Part shown: piece by piece, positions 1-21,095 of the stretch | Layout of the letters: the number at the start of each line of letters is the position of its first letter | Position numbering within the stretch: the stretch's first letter is position 1 | DNA from: a virus | Lineage: Duplodnaviria; Heunggongvirae; Uroviricota; Caudoviricetes | Reading direction: 5' to 3' (one strand) | Virus record (IMG/VR): IMGVR_UViG_648276657_000007 | Span: 1 to 26,895 of that record | DNA length: 26,895 nucleotides | The notes under the pieces: generated by a model | Told to the model about the DNA's origin: nothing | Seen by the model: the letters and a program-made list of their open reading frames with translations, nothing else | Database searches by the model: none | Made by a program: the position numbers and the translations under genes

Positions 1-1902
1 TTATTCAACTTCATTTCTTGGCAGCACATCTAGCTGTTTCATTAAGTCTCGAAATGATGGATACAAATCATCAATTGTCTGAATGAAGTCAAAGTATTTA
101 AATAATAACTTTGATGCTACTTCTTCATCTACATTTGATTCTCGCAGGAAGAGAGAAACACCTATTTTATTTTCCAGATCTGTAACAAACTTTTGGATAA
201 GAGGTTTTGACATTACTCGCTCAGGTTTGAATACTCCATCTTCGCACCATGATCTAACGACATCCACAAAATTAAGATTAGCAAATTCTGGTCGGTTTTT
301 CTTTTGACTATTGAATCTAGCCTCTATTTCTTTGTTTAGTGAGGAGGTTAAATCATTGACAGAATCCTTTAATTCATCAATTAAGGTATCAATGTGTGTT
401 GAAAATTCGTCTTCAGCAATAAATGGAGCCAAGGAATACAAATACTTTTTAAAAATACTCAGATCCGAAAATAACACTGACTCAATACAATATCCCACAT
501 GACTATATGGAGTGAACCGTTTCTTAGTAATATTATCCTTAAGATAATGATCAACAGTGTTTGTAGAAAAATCCCGATCAAAAATAACATACCACGATTT
601 GCCATTTAGAATCGAATTTAAAGTTCTCTTATTATACTCAACCTTTTGGAGAATATTATCTTTTCCTCGTAACGGAAAGAAAACTACATTTTTCAAACAA
701 CCAATTGGGTTAGTAATTTCTTTGATCTTTTGGTTAAGTTTCTTTAGATATTTTTCATCGTCCTCACCTTCAACAAATGCGATTAGTTTTGCATTATTAA
801 GTCTCTCGAGAGATAAAATTACCCCCCCCAATGAGTTTTTTATAATATCGAAACTATTTGGGTTGATTGCTTCTAGGTGACCACTTAATTTAGCGTCTTC
901 GTTTAGGAAGAATACTTCACCTTCTCCTGCGCTGGTCACAAATTGATCGTTATGACTGATAATAAAAAACTGATTGTGATCTATTTTTTTTAAATGGGCG
1001 AGAAGATTATGTTGTAGCTTTGTGTGGATGTGTGAGTCAGGTTCGTCAACAAGCAGTAACTTGAGAGGAGCATCAATAAATTCAACTGTAGATAGTATTT
1101 CCACAATTTGAAGAAAACCACTTCCTTGAAGGTGAAGATCATAATATTTTGAACTATTGATTGAAACATCAAGTTTAATGAATTCATCTTTATTTTTTCT
1201 TGCATCCGAAGGAATATTGAACTTGACATCTTTCTCAAGTATTTCAGATATGCTTAATTCCAAATCTGATATTGACTTTCTTTTAGAGATAATTTTGTTT
1301 CTAAGAACCTCGTGTGAATAACCTTTTTGGATTTTTCTCTTAATCTGAGCCTCATTATAGTACGGCTCAAATTGATGAACTCCTGCTACTGGTCTCGTCT
1401 GGTAAATAAAGATAGCTTCATCCAAAAATGCCCCTCCTTTACAAAATTCTTCCGCAAAATTAGTAAACTGATTTTCATCTATTGGTTGAACGCGGAAAAA
1501 AGCATTTTCGATTGATGTTGGGCATGTAACTTTGAATCCAAGCTCCCAGCTCTTATCATTCTCCTCTTCATTTTTTAATGTCAGAGTTATTTCAGAGCAT
1601 TTTCCTAGATTAGGATCTCTTGGGTCGTGAAAAAGATCCTCATCACTTGTGATTCGCAAAAAATCCAGCTCTTGATAATTAACATATCTGTTTGTTGACT
1701 TCTTAACTTTATAAAACCCTTTCCTTGAAGCAAGGATATATGTTTTATAACATTTCTCCCATAAATGAATAGCTTCAAAAACAGTTGACTTCCCAGCACT
1801 ATTTTCCCCAATGATTATATTAAAATCAGGATTGGGAACGATAGAAATATTTTTAAAACTTTTGAAGTTTTTTAATGATATTTTACTTATTCTTAGCTTC
1901 AT
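1..1902 (-). CDS. OLD-family ATPase-TOPRIM nuclease; either standalone P2-Old-like or a single-chain PARIS-like (AriA-AriB fusion) defence protein
   Basis: 633-aa ORF, ATG at 1902..1900, stop at 3..1. Walker A GENSAGKST (aa 32-40), Walker B LLLVDEPDSHIH, H-loop IISHND. C-terminal half has TOPRIM-like acidic motifs IAFVEGEDDE and YVIFDRDF. Sampled lines are about 30-35% GC. Confidence 0.7.
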   Translation of the reverse strand: MKLRISKISLKNFKSFKNISIVPNPDFNIIIGENSAGKSTVFEAIHLWEKCYKTYILASRKGFYKVKKSTNRYVNYQELDFLRITSDEDLFHDPRDPNLGKCSEITLTLKNEEENDKSWELGFKVTCPTSIENAFFRVQPIDENQFTNFAEEFCKGGAFLDEAIFIYQTRPVAGVHQFEPYYNEAQIKRKIQKGYSHEVLRNKIISKRKSISDLELSISEILEKDVKFNIPSDARKNKDEFIKLDVSINSSKYYDLHLQGSGFLQIVEILSTVEFIDAPLKLLLVDEPDSHIHTKLQHNLLAHLKKIDHNQFFIISHNDQFVTSAGEGEVFFLNEDAKLSGHLEAINPNSFDIIKNSLGGVILSLERLNNAKLIAFVEGEDDEKYLKKLNQKIKEITNPIGCLKNVVFFPLRGKDNILQKVEYNKRTLNSILNGKSWYVIFDRDFSTNTVDHYLKDNITKKRFTPYSHVGYCIESVLFSDLSIFKKYLYSLAPFIAEDEFSTHIDTLIDELKDSVNDLTSSLNKEIEARFNSQKKNRPEFANLNFVDVVRSWCEDGVFKPERVMSKPLIQKFVTDLENKIGVSLFLRESNVDEEVASKLLFKYFDFIQTIDDLYPSFRDLMKQLDVLPRNEVE

Positions 1903-2433
1903 CCAGACTCCCTAAACCAAATCGGATGTTTATTCATTTATATCAACAAACAGTCCTTTCTTTTGCCATAATAGCTATTAGCAACCAGACGCTTGCCTAG
2001 GTATAATCAGCTTTTTGGGGCTCGTCCATGAACAGAACCCCGATTATTCTGAATAAATACATTATTTATACATTTCTTGCAACATTTCAAATGCCTATCT
2101 CAATAAAATGTAATGAAATTTTTAGTGTTTCGGTCGAATGTATTAGTAACATCCCCCATTGACTTACATATGCTGAGGTTTGCAGCCTCTGATTGCGGCA
2201 CAAAGTTGACGGGTAGTATTGAGCAAAAAACGAACACTTTCCTTTTATTGAGGTTAGCTAAAACTGCATCGAGCTCTGAGGCCTGCCGTCAAACCTCATT
2301 TCATTGTTTCTACAAATCTTTATAGTTGATTATCAAATCTTCCATTGCAAAGAAAATTATTGGATAATCGTCTTTATTGATATTACTGTTTGATTTTTTG
2401 TAGTTAATAACTAAAATCAGGAAGAAATGAACG

Positions 2434-2871
2434 ATGACAAAAGAGAAATTATATAAATTACTATATGATATTTGGAAAAAATCCAGTCGTGCTTATTTTT
2501 CTGGCATAGGCGTTATTATATGTAATAACCCTGATAGCCTTCCCATCACAAGTCTTCGGAATATAGACCCCATACAGAATGATTCCACATTAGAATTATT
2601 ATCAAGAATTTCCAATAAAAATAGCGAATACCATGATGGCTTTCACATCTTAGATGAAGCAGGAAATGTTACTTATACCGCACAATATTTCTCACCACCA
2701 ATCATAGAGAACATCAGTTTTGACAGTTCAAGACTCGTCGGTGGACGTTTTGTTGCTGCCCTTTATGGCTCTTGCATTGACGAGATTAAACTTACTGGGA
2801 TTGTAGGCGAAAGAGGTCGTCTTTCTATATTTGAGGCTGGTAAAGAAGTTTATTACGAGGAGTTGCAATGA
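2434..2871 (+). CDS. Minimal DAC-fold (DisA_N / diadenylate-cyclase-like) protein with non-canonical catalytic motifs; candidate signal generator or sensor
   Basis: 145 aa; SD AGGAAG 8 nt upstream of the ATG. By-eye alignment to CdaA/DisA DAC motifs: GIGVII ~ GALIVI, STLELLSRI ~ SSELLINI, HDGFHIL ~ HDGAVIM, AQYFSPP ~ AACYLPLS, LVGGRFVAALYGS ~ LGTRHRAAVGIS, IVGERGRLSIF ~ IVSEETGGVSV. Stop overlaps the next ATG (ATGA at 2868-2871). Confidence 0.55.
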   Translation: MTKEKLYKLLYDIWKKSSRAYFSGIGVIICNNPDSLPITSLRNIDPIQNDSTLELLSRISNKNSEYHDGFHILDEAGNVTYTAQYFSPPIIENISFDSSRLVGGRFVAALYGSCIDEIKLTGIVGERGRLSIFEAGKEVYYEELQ

Positions 2872-3461
2872 TAAACCTTCTCCCAATATGGAAAATAATC
2901 TCAAGAATCTCCGTTATCTATGCGACTGTCTGCGGTCTGATTTTATTGGGCATATATGATGAAAACACAACTTTCATGACAGTCCTATCAGTTGCATCTG
3001 GAGGTTTGTTTATTCTTAATACTATTGTGATATCAATTTTTTTCTTTGGGTGGCGAAAGTTATGGCAATGGTTCCCTAAACTAAATAACCTACTCTTCCC
3101 TGATTTGAACGGAACCTGGGATATGGTTATTCATTGGGAATGGGAAGATAAAAAAGGCACATCCCACGCACAAGCAACTATAAAGCAGGATTTTCTTAAA
3201 ATTGGAATGGATGTCGAAGCTGACGACTCCGATTCTCAGACATTGGTGGCTAAGCCTAAAAAGGATACCGAAACGGGGCGACCAGAACTTTACTACGTTT
3301 TTTTAACAACCCCCAAGCATAAGGCAGGTTTTGGTCCACAAGATCCTTACATGGGCACAGCTATTCTCAAGCTAAATCTTAATGATAAAGACGTGTTAAA
3401 TGGGAACTACTTTACAAGCCGTAAAACAGTAGGTCATTACGAGCTGACACGCATTAACTAA
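2868..3461 (+). CDS. Two-transmembrane-helix membrane protein with about 135-aa C-terminal soluble domain; candidate membrane-disrupting effector (Cap15 / S-2TMbeta-like architecture)
   Basis: 197 aa; hydrophobic helices at roughly aa 12-30 (ISRISVIYATVCGLILLGIY) and 37-60 (MTVLSVASGGLFILNTIVISIFFFGW), followed by WRKLWQW and a hydrophilic domain; translationally coupled to the DAC-like gene. Confidence 0.6.
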   Translation: MINLLPIWKIISRISVIYATVCGLILLGIYDENTTFMTVLSVASGGLFILNTIVISIFFFGWRKLWQWFPKLNNLLFPDLNGTWDMVIHWEWEDKKGTSHAQATIKQDFLKIGMDVEADDSDSQTLVAKPKKDTETGRPELYYVFLTTPKHKAGFGPQDPYMGTAILKLNLNDKDVLNGNYFTSRKTVGHYELTRIN

Positions 3462-3776: not shown

Positions 3777-4304
3777 TTATTGCGGCATTTCCGGCCATTC
3801 AGGATTTGCAGGATCCACACGACTGACCAGAACGCTGTAGCGTTCCCATGCTTCCAGTCGGCTGCGCTCCTCCTCTGTTGCCATATTCAGCCTGACAGCG
3901 CGCTCCAGCAGCAAAATCACGGATTCAGCTTCGGAAAGTAAAGTTGCCTTTTGTGATTCTGCCAGTTGATGCTGTTCGTCTGCCGTATAAATCCGCTTAA
4001 TCACGGCACCATCCTTAAACATCCATTTACCTGAGTCATCAGCACGTCGGTTGGCGGTAATATCAGGAACCTCGACAACGCTAAATCCTTCAGGGTTAAG
4101 CGTTGAAGCATCTCTGGTGATGCCGACAATTATATTATTCTCGTCGTAAACAATCTTTATCGTGTCTTCCTGAAAATTACTTACTTCCTCATACCAGTTT
4201 TTTCCGTCTTCAGACCATAACCAGATAACATCAAAATTTTTTGTCAGTTGATATTGAGCAACAGTTTTGGGATTACCCGCAGTAATATTTTTTAAATGCT
4301 GCAT
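3777..4304 (-). CDS. G: Tail fibre assembly chaperone (P2 gpG-like)
   Basis: 175 aa, same length as P2 G as I recall it; lies immediately downstream of the tail fibre gene. Confidence 0.85.
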
Positions 4305-4307
4305 AAA

Positions 4308-6236
4308 TTACACCTGTGCGACGTTATACCATGTGCCATTGATGTATTTTTGTATTGGTCTGAATACTGCGGGGTCATCACCATCGACTTCACCGACAAT
4401 ACCAAGCCCTGTAATTACATGGCCTGATTTTTCATACATCACACCTTTTTGCATAGTCTGAACAACACGTGTGCCCAGGCGAATATCTCGTACATAGCGA
4501 GAATCCGATTCAGCTTTGGTATATGCACCAACATCTCCCGCAGAGGGTTTGCGGGTTGTGGTGTAAAACTCTGACCAGTCAGCCTCAAATCCATAACCAT
4601 CACGTGCTGAACGATAAAAAATACCGCCGTTCTTATAATTCACACGGAACTGTACGGCAGGGCAACTCCCCGCATTCATATTGAAGTGGAGGATTAATGT
4701 CGATGCACCGCTGATATCTGCATCATAAACACCGCTATTCCAGTTCCAGCCAACAGCTTTATCATTTGCAACCCTGCTTCCTGTTTGCCCTAAAGCAAAT
4801 GCAGGCTGCTGGTTTTTCGTGTTGTAGTCTCGTCGCCAGCCGGGGGCATAAGCATCACCATGATTAATATAAGTGAATTGAGCGTTAGTGGTGCCGCCTC
4901 CGGTAGAAGTGCTTGGTGTTGTTACACGGATGGTCATGGCACCTTTATTACCCATAACCTCAATAACGCAACCTGCAAGATGAATAGTTCCACAGCCAGT
5001 ATCGGTAATAATTTTATTATTGCCGTATGACCATGAACATTTGCACATCCAGTACGGATGATTAAATGCACCACGGGAATCCAGCCATTCAATAAACTGA
5101 GCGGTTGTCCAGTTTCCGGCTTCAGTGCTCAAAGCGCCGCTATAAGCACGACAGGCACCGATATTTTTCGTGAAGGTATCCTTTCCCGGAATATCCGCAC
5201 CGTTCTGATCTTTCTGAAGACGTTTTTCAGCATTGTCATAGGCAGACTTCACTGCTTTTGGTGTTGCGGCCAGCGTTTCAGAATCGCTGTTGATGGCACT
5301 ATTGAGCTGAACAAGACCTTTCCGCGCCGTGGTGGCGTCCTGTGCAGTGTATTTCCCGTTAGCAAGGTCATATGCTGCTTTTACCGCCTTTGGCGTTGCT
5401 GCAAGCGTTTCAGAATCGCTGTTGGTGGCGCTACTGAGCTGGATAAGACCTTTTCGCGCTGTGGTGGCGTCCTGTGCAGTGTATTTCCCGTTAGCAAGGT
5501 CATATGCTGCTTTTACCGCTTTCGGCGTTGCGGCCAGTGTTTCAGACGTGCTGTTGGTGGCACTACTGAGCTGGACAAGGCCTTTTCGCGCTATGGTGGC
5601 GTCCTGTGCGGTATATTTCCCGTTAGCAAGGTCATACGCGGCCTTTACCGCTTTCGGCGTTGCGGCCAGTGTTTCAGACGTGCTGTTGGTCGCACTGCTT
5701 AACTGAGTAAAACCTTTGGCGGTCAGCGAGGCGTCCGGGTGACGTCGTGACTGTTCATGTTCTGCAATTTTGTCATCAACGTAATCCTGCGTTGCCATCA
5801 CCGTTGTGGTGTCAATGGTCAGCTCCACTGAGGCTACACTGCTGACTATGATGACCATGCGGCAGGTCTGCGAACGCCCTGAGCCTTCGGCAAGGGCTGG
5901 CTTATAACTTTCGGCCATGTTCGCCACGGCAATTAGCGTTCCCGCATCATCGTACAGGCCAAGTTCACGCATCCAGAAACCGCCCACCTCCGGCGGAATA
6001 ACCAGCTCTGCGATAATATAATTACTGTTTCGTTTGTCCTGGCTGATTTTGTTCAGCGTATGTCGCCAGACTTCGTGGATAAGTCCGGTCTGTCCGGCAT
6101 CCGGGACAGGCAATTTACCACCGCCATCCCCGACGGCCATCGTGGTAATGTTGACCTTCCGCCCTCCCGGTGCGGTTGCCGCTGCCAGCTTTGCTGCACC
6201 GGCAGTGGTGATAACGGTTCTGAATTTTGTGCTCAT
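4308..6236 (-). CDS. H: Tail fibre protein (P2 gpH-like) with internal tandem fibre repeats and a C-terminal receptor-binding region
   Basis: 642 aa; conserved N-terminus MSTKFRTVITTAGAAKL...; 44-aa repeats QLSSATNSTSETLAATPKAVKAAYDLANGKYTAQDAT in about 3.5 copies. Confidence 0.9.
   Translation of the reverse strand: MSTKFRTVITTAGAAKLAAATAPGGRKVNITTMAVGDGGGKLPVPDAGQTGLIHEVWRHTLNKISQDKRNSNYIIAELVIPPEVGGFWMRELGLYDDAGTLIAVANMAESYKPALAEGSGRSQTCRMVIIVSSVASVELTIDTTTVMATQDYVDDKIAEHEQSRRHPDASLTAKGFTQLSSATNSTSETLAATPKAVKAAYDLANGKYTAQDATIARKGLVQLSSATNSTSETLAATPKAVKAAYDLANGKYTAQDATTARKGLIQLSSATNSDSETLAATPKAVKAAYDLANGKYTAQDATTARKGLVQLNSAINSDSETLAATPKAVKSAYDNAEKRLQKDQNGADIPGKDTFTKNIGACRAYSGALSTEAGNWTTAQFIEWLDSRGAFNHPYWMCKCSWSYGNNKIITDTGCGTIHLAGCVIEVMGNKGAMTIRVTTPSTSTGGGTTNAQFTYINHGDAYAPGWRRDYNTKNQQPAFALGQTGSRVANDKAVGWNWNSGVYDADISGASTLILHFNMNAGSCPAVQFRVNYKNGGIFYRSARDGYGFEADWSEFYTTTRKPSAGDVGAYTKAESDSRYVRDIRLGTRVVQTMQKGVMYEKSGHVITGLGIVGEVDGDDPAVFRPIQKYINGTWYNVAQV
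5250..5740. repeat. In-frame tandem repeat of about 132 bp, roughly 3.5 copies, inside tail fibre gene H
   Basis: Unit start tgtgcagtgtatttcccgttagcaaggtcat recurs at 5341, 5473 and 5605 (period 132), with a degenerate partial copy before 5341. Confidence 0.85.
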
Positions 6237-18240: not shown

Positions 18241-19125
18241 TCAGGCGCAAGTTGGCATTGAGACCCCTTTCAGGGTATTAGGAATAATTATTTCAGGAGA
18301 AAAAATCATCACTTCCTCTCCAGATTTTTTGAGATGCGCTGTATATTGCAATGAATACTCAACTTGCGGAAATTCATTATAAATATCTTTAATTTCCTTA
18401 GCATTATCATAAGAAACAAGCCAATTTGGGAAATTAATTTCTGTGAGTTTCTTCATAACCAATACATGATCATCATGCTCATAAAAATTCCTGTAAAGCC
18501 CTTGCCCTTTAATATAGTAAGGAGGATCCAAATACAAAAGAATTTTATTTTTATCCACCTTTCCCATATTATCCATAAAATTCAAGGCATCAAGAAAATC
18601 CAAAGCATCCAGATTAGTTACTACTATTCTTTGATTATAATTTGCTATCTTCTCAATTCTTGAAATTAAATCCGCCCTGTTAAAGCGAACATCCATTTTC
18701 CATTTTCCATTTTGTGATTTCCCACCTATAACCCCCGCCTTGAGAATACCTGAACGATTTGTTCTATTTAAGAAAAACGCAGCAAAGCCAACCTCAAGCT
18801 TAGTAAACTCAGAAGGATTCGAAATAACATAGCGATGAAAAGACCATTCATCCATATCTATCTTTGCTCGGCTAATAAGTCGGCAAAGCTCATCAGTATC
18901 ACTAACAACAGATGACCAAAAAGAATAAACAGCAAAATCTGCATCATTTATATAGATTTTACGGACATACTCTTCCAATAATAATTCTAAAGCCACCCCT
19001 GCACCACCAGCGTAAGGTTCTGCATATGCTCCATCATTCAACGAGTTTTTTTCAATAACATCTTTTAAAAAGTAAGATAACTTACCTTTCCCGCCGGGGT
19101 ATCTTAATGGAGTATAAAATTTCAT
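18241..19125 (-). CDS. Dam-family (D12 class) N6-adenine DNA methyltransferase
   Basis: 294 aa; N-terminal RYPGGKGKL, AdoMet motif EPYAGGAGV, catalytic LYLDPPYY; AT-rich cargo island between cos and gene A. Confidence 0.85.
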   Translation of the reverse strand: MKFYTPLRYPGGKGKLSYFLKDVIEKNSLNDGAYAEPYAGGAGVALELLLEEYVRKIYINDADFAVYSFWSSVVSDTDELCRLISRAKIDMDEWSFHRYVISNPSEFTKLEVGFAAFFLNRTNRSGILKAGVIGGKSQNGKWKMDVRFNRADLISRIEKIANYNQRIVVTNLDALDFLDALNFMDNMGKVDKNKILLYLDPPYYIKGQGLYRNFYEHDDHVLVMKKLTEINFPNWLVSYDNAKEIKDIYNEFPQVEYSLQYTAHLKKSGEEVMIFSPEIIIPNTLKGVSMPTCA

Positions 19126-19162
19126 AAATCCCTCTCATTCCTGATTTTGTAGTTTATCAGTT

Positions 19163-19182
19163 TCTGGACATCCATGTCCAGA
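19163..19182. promoter_or_regulatory. Inverted repeat TCTGGACAT-cc-ATGTCCAGA between the ParB-like gene stop and the methyltransferase start; candidate operator or attenuator
   Basis: 9-bp perfect arms with a 2-bp spacer, about 40 bp upstream of the methyltransferase ATG (19125). Confidence 0.4.
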
Positions 19183-19194
19183 TGTAGACAAATC

Positions 19195-20739
19195 TCACTC
19201 ACTCCAAATAAGGCTTAATAACAACTCAAAGTTATCCCACTCAGTGTTGACAGCCTCTTTTGAGGGAATTAAGTGTGGGTTATGTACATACTGCTGCAAT
19301 GAACCATCATGTTTAGTTATTTGGCTCGAGAAAGTTATTACAGCCGTACATTGACTCCCCGTCATCTTTTTATTTTCCCGAAGGAAATTAGCACACATTT
19401 TAACCTTATCATGAAGCCCTGGAGTTCTATGCGGTTCCTTAAATTGTAACTTGTTTTCTTCAACAAAAGTGCTTACAGAGAGATCTATAAATATTCTCAA
19501 CAATATTGAGATAGCATTAGGGGTATTATCAAATGTCAGATGCGACTTAAGCTCATTAAATATTCTAGAGCATTTCTTATGCCCTCTAAAATTAAATTTC
19601 ACATAAGATGGCACCAACACATTACGATCTACTTTAGGAGGAGTTTTTCCCTTGCTTTTATTCTGTTCCGTACCCGAAACTTTAGATTTACTCTCTTCTG
19701 TGCCTACATGTCTAGAATAATCATCTTCCTGTTTATCCATACCTGTATTCTTTAAGGCATCACCTTCCTGTTTATCCATACCTGTATTCTTTAAGGCATC
19801 ACCTTCTGAAAGACCTACTTTCTTTACACTCACAGAGGCATCATTTTTGTCAATAGAATCATCTTTTTTCTCTGTAAGAAAAGATTTAGGCTCCAGTAAA
19901 CTCCACGGCTTATCTAAAAGAGATTCTGAAGGTTTTATTTTTTGTTCAATAATAAATGTAACCCTGTCATCTTGGCTACGAATCCTATTAACAGTAAAAC
20001 AAGCCTTACCTTTATCATCCTCTTCAATCATTACATCTAAAATATTTTTTAATTGTGCACAAAAACGTTCATAAGGCTGATATGAGTATAGAACTCCATT
20101 AATGCTTTTTAAATTAAAATAATCCCTCACCTTTAAATCACCAAAAAGACGCGTGATGTTTGTGATTTTTAAAAGTCTTTTTTTAGCAATTATCTCTTTA
20201 TATAAATCAGTATTGAACTCTATAAATGTAAGTATTTGATTACCAAATGACTGCTTACCCATCCTAGCCAGATGCCGTGCTTTTTCTGTTGCAGTCCATT
20301 CAACTCTTCCAACTCCAGCATTTTGACCAGTATGCTTTAAATTAACCCAATGCTCATATTCATCATCGTCAAAAAGAACGCAGTTATCTATAACATTAAT
20401 ATCTTTAAGCTGAGTAATCTTAAGTTTTTCAAAAGCTTTCCGTGCTTTTTCTGTTGGTGCAAGTCTAGGAGAGTGTAAAAGTTTAAGGGCTGTAACTCGA
20501 CGATTACCTTCAGCAACGACGAAAAAGCCAGATTCCTCTTCACTAGGATAAACTAATATGTTTTCAGACGGATCTAAACCTTTCGAAGCAATATCTTTAG
20601 CCAAGCGATAAATGCGGTCGTACTGCAAGTCAAGCATCTTGGCAATAGCATCACGCTGATTTTCTGCTGACGTCGGGAAACGAGGGTTATCAACATCCAA
20701 AAGTAACTTATTGATATTCATTGATTTTAGTTGATTCAT
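19195..20739 (-). CDS. ParB-N-domain (ParB/Srx nuclease-fold) protein with uncharacterised central and C-terminal regions; candidate partner of the adjacent methyltransferase
   Basis: Start chosen at MNQLKSMNINK, with SD GAGGAT about 8 nt upstream (514 aa); the six-frame ORF runs to 20808 (537 aa) but its first 16 codons cover a palindrome. ParB-like motifs LLLDVDNPRFP and FFVVAEGNRRVTALKLL. Contains an in-frame 2 x 13-aa duplication. Confidence 0.65.
   Translation of the reverse strand: MNQLKSMNINKLLLDVDNPRFPTSAENQRDAIAKMLDLQYDRIYRLAKDIASKGLDPSENILVYPSEEESGFFVVAEGNRRVTALKLLHSPRLAPTEKARKAFEKLKITQLKDINVIDNCVLFDDDEYEHWVNLKHTGQNAGVGRVEWTATEKARHLARMGKQSFGNQILTFIEFNTDLYKEIIAKKRLLKITNITRLFGDLKVRDYFNLKSINGVLYSYQPYERFCAQLKNILDVMIEEDDKGKACFTVNRIRSQDDRVTFIIEQKIKPSESLLDKPWSLLEPKSFLTEKKDDSIDKNDASVSVKKVGLSEGDALKNTGMDKQEGDALKNTGMDKQEDDYSRHVGTEESKSKVSGTEQNKSKGKTPPKVDRNVLVPSYVKFNFRGHKKCSRIFNELKSHLTFDNTPNAISILLRIFIDLSVSTFVEENKLQFKEPHRTPGLHDKVKMCANFLRENKKMTGSQCTAVITFSSQITKHDGSLQQYVHNPHLIPSKEAVNTEWDNFELLLSLIWSE
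19728..19805. repeat. Perfect 2 x 39-bp tandem duplication inside the ParB-like CDS
   Basis: cctgtttatccatacctgtattctttaaggcatcacctt occurs twice back to back; encodes EGDALKNTGMDKQ twice on the minus strand. Confidence 0.9.
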
Positions 20740-20760
20740 CAACATATCCTCTGTTGAATC

Positions 20761-20793
20761 TTTATGATAAAAATTAATTATTTTTATCATAAA
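20761..20793. promoter_or_regulatory. AT-rich palindrome TTTATGATAAAAAT-taatt-ATTTTTATCATAAA just upstream of the ParB-like gene; candidate operator
   Basis: 14-bp perfect inverted arms separated by 5 bp, 22-54 bp upstream of the preferred start codon. Confidence 0.45.
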
Positions 20794-21095
20794 TGATAGC
20801 GTAAACATAGTCTTATGAACGACATCAGCCCTGAAGCTTCAAAACTATCATTTACGTTTGCGAGGCATCATCTATCACATTGATTTATAATAAGTATCTT
20901 TATCTTCACTGCATTGCTCTCAAAAAATCACATAGATGGAAATTCCCCGTTGACACACTCCCAAGTGATGCAGATACATTTCAAGTGCTTCATACACATG
21001 ATAACGGCTATCCCCCTAAATTCTGTGCGTTTCTTTTCCCTCCAGCACAAGGTTGAAATATCTTGCGTGCAGCTTTACTTTGTGAATCTTTGTCA

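Follow-up and report, generated by a model that had tools for sequence, protein, structure and literature searches.

A diadenylate-cyclase-fold synthase with remodelled catalytic motifs, carried by a P2-like Escherichia coli prophage, very probably belongs to a PanDA/Panoptoo operon

What does a protein with the fold of a diadenylate cyclase (DAC) do when several of the residues that define the active site of this enzyme family have been replaced? Ligand binding by canonical DACs is said to depend on their DGA and RHR motifs (PMC8573169). The question is raised by a short gene, here called panS, on a stretch of viral DNA of 26,895 nucleotides (the window). A sequence-only reading of this DNA had suggested that the panS product may not be a conventional c-di-AMP synthase, and that it could instead make a different product, act solely as a nucleotide sensor, or serve as a bound inhibitor of a two-transmembrane (2TM) partner in a guard-type mechanism. 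We conclude that panS and the gene that overlaps it, panE (together 2434–3461), very probably constitute a PanDA/Panoptoo operon that works by the PanDA/Panoptoo mechanism and travels as cargo of a P2-like E. coli prophage. The system itself is already known from preprints of August 2026; the additions made here are its prophage slot, its neighbours and family-wide statistics on its motifs. The features discussed are collected in Table 1.

Table 1. Positions of the genes, signals and motif codons in the window
Feature	Position	Strand	Description and basis
AAA_15/AAA_21 ABC-type ATPase fused to DUF4435 (OLD/TOPRIM-like), 633 aa	1..1902	-	Pfam; resembles fused PARIS AriAB
Promoter-like TTGATT-16-TAAAAT	2390-2417	+	Upstream of panS; consensus scan, suggestive only
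Shine-Dalgarno-like AGGAAG	2419-2424	+	9 nt upstream of panS; from sequence
panS	2434..2871	+	145-aa minimal diadenylate-cyclase-fold synthase; intact ORF, ATG start, TGA stop
HDGFH codons, H67-D68-G69-F70-H71	2632..2646 (H67-F70 = 2632-2643)	+	Counterpart of canonical (H)DGA, Ala to Phe; hhalign
Y85 codon	2686..2688	+	Counterpart of adenine-stacking Y187 (L. monocytogenes CdaA), within invariant QYFSP; hhalign
GGRFV codons, G103-G104-R105-F106-V107	2740..2754 (G103-F106 = 2740-2751)	+	Counterpart of canonical G-T-R-H-R, first Arg alone kept; hhalign
G125-E126 codons	2806-2811	+	PanS counterpart of CdaA S222-E223; hhalign
panS-panE overlap, ATGA	2868..2871	+	panS stop/panE start, 4 nt, translational coupling; from sequence
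panE	2868..3461	+	197-aa effector, two N-terminal transmembrane helices and Cap15-type cyclic-dinucleotide-receptor beta-barrel
P2-type tail fibre assembly gene G	3777..4304	-	Caudo_TAP in identical contexts; right border of cargo slot
Tail fibre gene H	4308-6236	-	Tandem repeats at roughly 5200-5700
PD-Lambda-5	18241-20808	-	Second P2 cargo slot, old/tin position

We began with the identity of the panS product. Its match to the Pfam DAC family (PF02457; E 3.6e-5, 23.8 bits) lay below the gathering threshold of 27 bits, although PF02457 matches are precomputed for some close homologues; NCBIfam gave no match, and the PADLOC models used (2023) include none for PanS. The Pfam and PADLOC searches likewise returned no mCpol, GGDEF or Cas10 match. 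The fold was clearer. An AF2 model built on a 36-member family alignment reached a mean pLDDT of 94.5, and when it was compared with the PDB by Foldseek, the best 50 matches were all DAC enzymes (CdaA, DacA, DisA, CdaM, DacM and B. cereus 2fb5), with TM scores of 0.6–0.69 (about 0.65) and E values of 5e-7 to 1e-4. The protein is a bare catalytic domain, lacking transmembrane, DNA-binding, regulatory or sensor domains. A scan for promoters and terminators found sites no commoner than in shuffled sequence.

Since the Pfam DAC score was weak, the motif alignment was tested independently. Using hhalign, the 36-member PanS family profile was aligned with L. monocytogenes CdaA, which paired H67-D68-G69-F70 with H170-D171-G172-A173 and G103-G104-R105-F106-V107 with G201-T202-R203-H204-R205; a second hhalign run, against a five-sequence CdaA/DisA alignment for which the DisA sequences were drawn from PDB alignments, gave an identical register. 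The CdaA catalytic-domain sequence was checked against PDB 6hvl/4rv7 (100% identity across 154 residues), and its numbering offset is 100, since the substitution in PDB 6hvn, a "Y187A mutant" entry, falls at query position 87. When PDB sequences were searched with the PanS family profile, CdaA scored no better than E about 0.1 and ranked below spurious KAT8 matches; the comparison with CdaA was therefore made by hhalign and by fold. Together, these alignments with verified DAC enzymes and the fold bear out what the sequence-only reading had claimed for this gene, namely, a DAC-like product with HDGF (aa 67–70) and GGRF (aa 103–106) at the canonical catalytic positions, in which the first Arg of RHR is kept while its His and second Arg, and the Ala of DGA, are replaced (F70 and R105-F106-V107). 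Around these motifs, the Thr that precedes RHR is Gly in PanS (A, G, S or T in the family), and the equivalent of canonical S222 is G125 in the E. coli protein, likewise Gly in the crystallised PanS 37jy described below (S 72, T 21 and G 19 in the family column). We also considered whether the canonical motifs might be placed elsewhere in PanS, and this was ruled out: the 145 residues contain no DGA string, no RHR string and only two histidines, H67 and H71, and both hhalign runs concur.

We then asked how these substitutions are distributed across the family. A PanS family HMM, searched independently of motif words against 1.84 billion representative proteins, recovered 330 clusters at E<=1e-3, of which 291 also passed E<=1e-10. 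PanS is thus a small clade of its own, set apart from the far larger family of canonical DACs. Among the best ~146 representatives from this search, D68 and G69 were present in 146/146 and R105 in 142/143. Position 70 was F in 142 and Y in 4, with Ala in 0/146, and the Y85 column held Y in 116 and F in 30. The remaining RHR positions were far more permissive: position 106 was Y 82, F 20, H 16 and Q 7 (His in 16/139), position 107 was M 38, R 30, L 28, A 13 and V 12 (Arg in 30/139), and a full RHR occurred in 4/139. These two positions and 104 vary more among family members than the rest of the motif. The columns from Q84 to P88 were invariant in the 36-member alignment, and the family-specific invariant residues are F70, H71, Q84 and F86-S87-P88. 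All 100 of 100 close homologues carried HDGFH, a count that is partly circular since this set was partly gathered by the pattern YHDGFH, and G-x-R was likewise invariant among them. To judge from conservation, the motif pattern fits a functional enzyme whose site has been remodelled, not a pseudo-enzyme or decay, because DG-F and G-x-R are essentially invariant in ~150 representatives and pairwise dN/dS between the window panS and five enterobacterial orthologues is 0.11–0.25.

The second gene of the pair was examined in the same way. In an AF2 model (pLDDT 85.7), PanE has transmembrane helices at aa 7–29 and aa 36–68, followed by an eight-stranded barrel at aa about 77–195. It matched Pfam Cap15_CD_rec (PF18153) at E 8.4e-20 and the PADLOC CBASS "2TM effector" models at E values down to 3e-31, and its best Foldseek match was the Yersinia Cap15 cyclic-dinucleotide receptor 7n34 (TM 0.87, rmsd 2.2 A). 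PDB sequences gave no significant match to PanE, so that the kinship with Cap15 is seen by profile and fold only. The pairing with PanS recurs widely: by phmmer, a PanE homologue lies 3' of the PanS homologue in at least 20 of 29 genome loci (Gamma-, Beta- and Alphaproteobacteria and Acidobacteria), and a Bacteroidota locus has a downstream Cap15_CD_rec protein that is detectable by Pfam only. Most of the 29 related loci examined also have the 4-nt overlap of the two genes. No CD-NTase stands beside panE in the window, nor does one in the E. coli contexts; the neighbours are the AAA+DUF4435 ATPase and P2 tail genes.

Several variations on this arrangement were observed among the related loci. 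Over the same lineages, PanE has diverged less than PanS: in marine Gammaproteobacteria, identity to the window proteins is about 62–65% for PanE and about 50% for PanS. Three Sphingomonas loci (L011, L012 and L013) carry, besides the downstream PanE, a second and weaker Cap15-like ORF directly upstream of PanS at about 5170–5965 (phmmer E 3e-7 to 2e-5). In Chryseobacterium daecheongense (locus L023, 2685–6892), and also in locus L021, a PanS-like DAC lies within a type II CBASS operon, in which CD-NTase, Cap2 (E1/E2), Cap15-like 2TM effector, PanS-like DAC and JAB/Cap3 follow one another, co-oriented and overlapping. This operon suggests either that one Cap15-type effector answers to an activating signal as well as to a decoy, or that the DAC is a second synthase.

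A search of PDB sequences with PanS by phmmer yielded a single match, 37jy_A, the 147-aa "Panoptoo PanS synthase" (E 1.6e-30 over residues 6–142); with the PanS family profile, the E value for 37jy was 1.4e-46. The crystallised protein belongs to a rhizobial clade (87% identity to a homologue of Ciceribacter naphthalenivorans) and carries YHDGFH, QYFSPP and GGRY motifs; HDGFH and GGR[FY] are common to it and the window PanS. The two-gene architecture is also the same, with a PanE that combines two transmembrane helices and a Cap15 barrel. No difference from PanDA/Panoptoo is established, although the window PanS has G125 where most of the family has S or T, and it differs from 37jy at 102, 106, 107 and 110, with F106-V107 here versus Y-L in 37jy. 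At about 41% identity, the product of the window PanS cannot be transferred from 37jy by homology.

Two preprints describe the system. PanDA (Nabhani et al., bioRxiv, 11 August 2026; PMC13640721) is reported as a pair in which PanS constitutively makes 3'3'-c-di-AMP, the toxic 2TM-beta protein PanE is bound and held in check by this nucleotide, and the phage sponge Acb4 releases PanE, whereupon the membrane is permeabilised. The Panoptoo preprint (Ragucci, Haley and Kranzusch, bioRxiv, 11 August 2026; PMC13640738) reports that PanS makes 3'3'-cUA or 3'3'-c-di-AMP, that a symmetry break in the DAC site permits asymmetric products, and that synthesis is constitutive, with a 1.5 A structure containing bound product (PDB 37jy); by term count, its full text mentions DGA and RHR twice each. 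The same kind of count finds "MS 185-1" and "prophage" once each in the full PanDA text, from which "P2-like" and "EFJ55817" are absent (PMC13640721). The exact sequences of the window's 633-aa ATPase and PanE are EFJ55816.1 and EFJ55818.1 of E. coli MS 185-1. From these exact protein matches and the single mention of the strain, the window operon is probably the E. coli MS 185-1 system studied as PanDA, or an identical copy of it, and 3'3'-c-di-AMP is the likely product of the window PanS.

The mechanism that we propose combines the fold, motif mapping, conservation, homology to the solved PanS, gene pairing and context computed here with the constitutive synthesis, product, PanE repression and sponge trigger taken from the preprints. 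PanS would be expressed constitutively and make a 3'3' cyclic dinucleotide, most likely 3'3'-c-di-AMP in the E. coli clade. E. coli is not known to make c-di-AMP itself, so this signal would serve the system alone. By binding the cytoplasmic Cap15-type beta-barrel of PanE, the nucleotide would keep the two-helix membrane protein inactive. An infecting phage that expresses a cyclic-nucleotide sponge such as Acb4, a documented sponge of cyclic dinucleotides (PMC11722364), or that otherwise depletes the signal to defeat CBASS-type immunity, would thereby release PanE, and the freed effector would permeabilise the inner membrane and abort the infection. Within the synthase, DGF and G-x-R-[FY]-x would be the conserved active-site signature of the PanS clade rather than a mark of degeneration: PanS retains the catalytic Asp-Gly, the first (phosphate-binding) Arg and the base-stacking Tyr, and the canonical His and second Arg are predicted to be dispensable here.

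This arrangement can be set beside three known systems. The first, Panoptes, restrains its 2TM-beta effector with 2'3'-c-di-AMP made by mCpol (Doherty et al. 2025, Nature, PMC12657230). Panoptes shares the inverted logic, in which a constitutive decoy cyclic dinucleotide represses an effector with 2TM and beta-barrel parts and phage sponges or phosphodiesterases act as the trigger; however, mCpol is a synthase of the Cas10 Palm/GGDEF type with a 2'3' product, whereas the synthase here has an unrelated fold, that of a DAC, and a 3'3' linkage is expected. Panoptes is reportedly also the subject of Sullivan et al. 2025. The housekeeping enzymes CdaA/DacA, DisA and CdaS (PF02457) have in common with PanS the fold, Asp-Gly, the first Arg of RHR, the stacking Tyr and an A-A after the motif. 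PanS differs from them in the changes from DGA to DGF and from T-R-H-R to G-R-F-V, in the lack of extra domains, in its sub-threshold Pfam score and its small discrete clade, in a role that would be immune rather than osmotic or concerned with DNA integrity, and in its occurrence in Proteobacteria and Bacteroidota, where, to our knowledge, canonical c-di-AMP signalling is often absent. The Cap15 effector of CBASS (PDB 7n34/7n35) is homologous to PanE, with two transmembrane helices and a cyclic-dinucleotide-binding beta-barrel, but the panS-panE operon has no CD-NTase, and the ligand is reported to repress PanE rather than to activate it. CBASS with a Cap15 effector is said to have been described by Duncan-Lowey et al. 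2021.

How far can the same genes be read differently? The window-clade PanS might operate within the same guard architecture and yet make an asymmetric or other dinucleotide, for example, 3'3'-cUA, with positions 106 and 107 (F-V here, Y-L in the crystallised protein) contributing to base choice. The alternative products and the symmetry break reported for Panoptoo (PMC13640738) are in its favour, as is the fact that 104, 106 and 107 are the most variable motif positions. Against it, the PanDA preprint reports 3'3'-c-di-AMP and names E. coli MS 185-1, the carrier of these exact proteins (PMC13640721), and we regard this variant as unlikely. The earlier suggestion of a different product is thus true of some PanS enzymes, which are reported to make 3'3'-cUA, but not of the E. 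coli clade as the PanDA preprint describes it; PanS is not a synthase of the housekeeping type, as had been surmised, but the product reported for its clade is the ordinary 3'3'-c-di-AMP. A positive logic like that of classical CBASS, in which PanS would stay silent until infection and its nucleotide would then activate a Cap15-like effector, draws on the activation of Cap15 by cyclic dinucleotides in CBASS, on the matches of PanE to CBASS 2TM models and to the Cap15 structure, and on the PanS-like genes inside type II CBASS operons of Chryseobacterium. Yet PanS is a bare catalytic domain without any sensor or regulatory domain, both preprints report constitutive synthesis and repression of PanE (PMC13640721, PMC13640738), and inverted logic acting on an effector of this class has a precedent in Panoptes (PMC12657230), which leaves this reading very improbable.

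The last reading to be weighed is that PanS is a catalytically dead DAC-fold protein, which would either bind nucleotide and nothing more or act as a protein antitoxin that binds PanE directly. The losses of the canonical His and second Arg and the sub-threshold Pfam score point this way, and in M. tuberculosis DacA, an RHR-to-AAA change abolishes ATP binding and activity, while G73A in DGA retains activity (PMC3328451), so that activity of PanS without the His and second Arg is not obvious a priori. The triple mutant is, however, silent on which of the three residues is essential, and PanS keeps the first. Invariance of the Asp-Gly, the first Arg and the stacking Tyr, coupled with strong purifying selection on the active-site motifs, is what one would expect of an enzyme, and constitutive synthesis and a product-bound PanS structure at 1.5 A are reported; of the readings considered, we give this one the least credence, as barely plausible. 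The idea of a sensor that had lost catalysis is accordingly not supported, both preprints describing a constitutive cyclase. From the proposed bound inhibitor, the guard logic with a 2TM partner survives, but according to the same preprints, the inhibitor is the nucleotide product and not the PanS protein itself.

We next turned to the DNA that surrounds the PanDA/Panoptoo-type pair. Bases 3700–26895 have 96–97% DNA identity to the P2-like phages fiAA91-ss and Wphi, and GC content is 31–37% at bases 1–3200 versus 55–60% in the phage structural genes. Wherever the exact PanS is encoded in the E. coli contigs examined, the gene order is the same, namely, tail sheath FI, the 633-aa ATPase (-), panS and panE (+), and tail fibre assembly gene G; panS-panE therefore sits in the P2 cargo slot FI–G, between the tail sheath and tail fibre assembly genes. 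The ATPase, which matched the PADLOC models NsnB (E 4e-20) and AriAB of fused PARIS (E 2.8e-18), is a separate system from panS-panE on the same low-GC island. The exact PanS is indexed in 172 collection blocks and known only from draft assemblies and metagenomes; megablast found no match to the locus among 5,426 complete RefSeq E. coli genomes, and tblastn found none to PanS among 50,697 phage records. In other genera, the pair has different surroundings, with neither P2 tail genes nor the ATPase found in the vicinity of PanS, which makes the P2 context specific to the E. coli copies.

Two further features of this prophage were recorded. A second P2 cargo slot, flanked by portal gene Q and replication gene A at the old/tin position, holds PD-Lambda-5, with a protein A of 537 aa (PADLOC E 1.6e-167) and a protein B that is a 294-aa D12-class adenine methyltransferase (E 8e-122). 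In tail fibre gene H, a motif of about 44 aa (…ATPKAVKAAYDLANGKYTAQDAT.ARKGL.QLSSATNS.SETLA…) is present in several tandem copies, and the repeats are also visible as repeated ORF fragments on the opposite strand.

If the 633-aa ATPase is PARIS-like, both systems in the FI–G slot would sense phage counter-defence proteins. A bolder set of proposals, which taken jointly we consider doubtful, would have positions 104 (A/G/S/T), 106 (Y/F/H/Q) and 107 (M/R/L/V) of PanS act as a code for the dinucleotide made by each clade, the invariant family-specific F70-H71 replace the lost function of the RHR His and Arg, the enterobacterial F-V type possess an undescribed specificity or regulation, and P2 prophages bring PanDA and a PARIS-like ATPase together by design, as an island with two sensors directed against phage counter-defence proteins.

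For annotation, the HDGFH and G-x-R-[YF] signature, together with an overlapping Cap15-type 2TM gene, is a reliable marker of PanDA/Panoptoo, which is of use for a gene such as the window panS that escapes Pfam (by falling below threshold), NCBIfam and PADLOC (2023). As the system has been published in preprints and was probably characterised from the same strain, the present work contributes context rather than discovery. Its wider meaning is that a departure from the textbook DGA and RHR motifs in a DAC-fold protein is no ground for assuming that function has been lost: in the present case, it is the mark of a discrete clade of immune cyclases, and PanS-type enzymes would make decoy nucleotides through which the cell detects phage sponge proteins.
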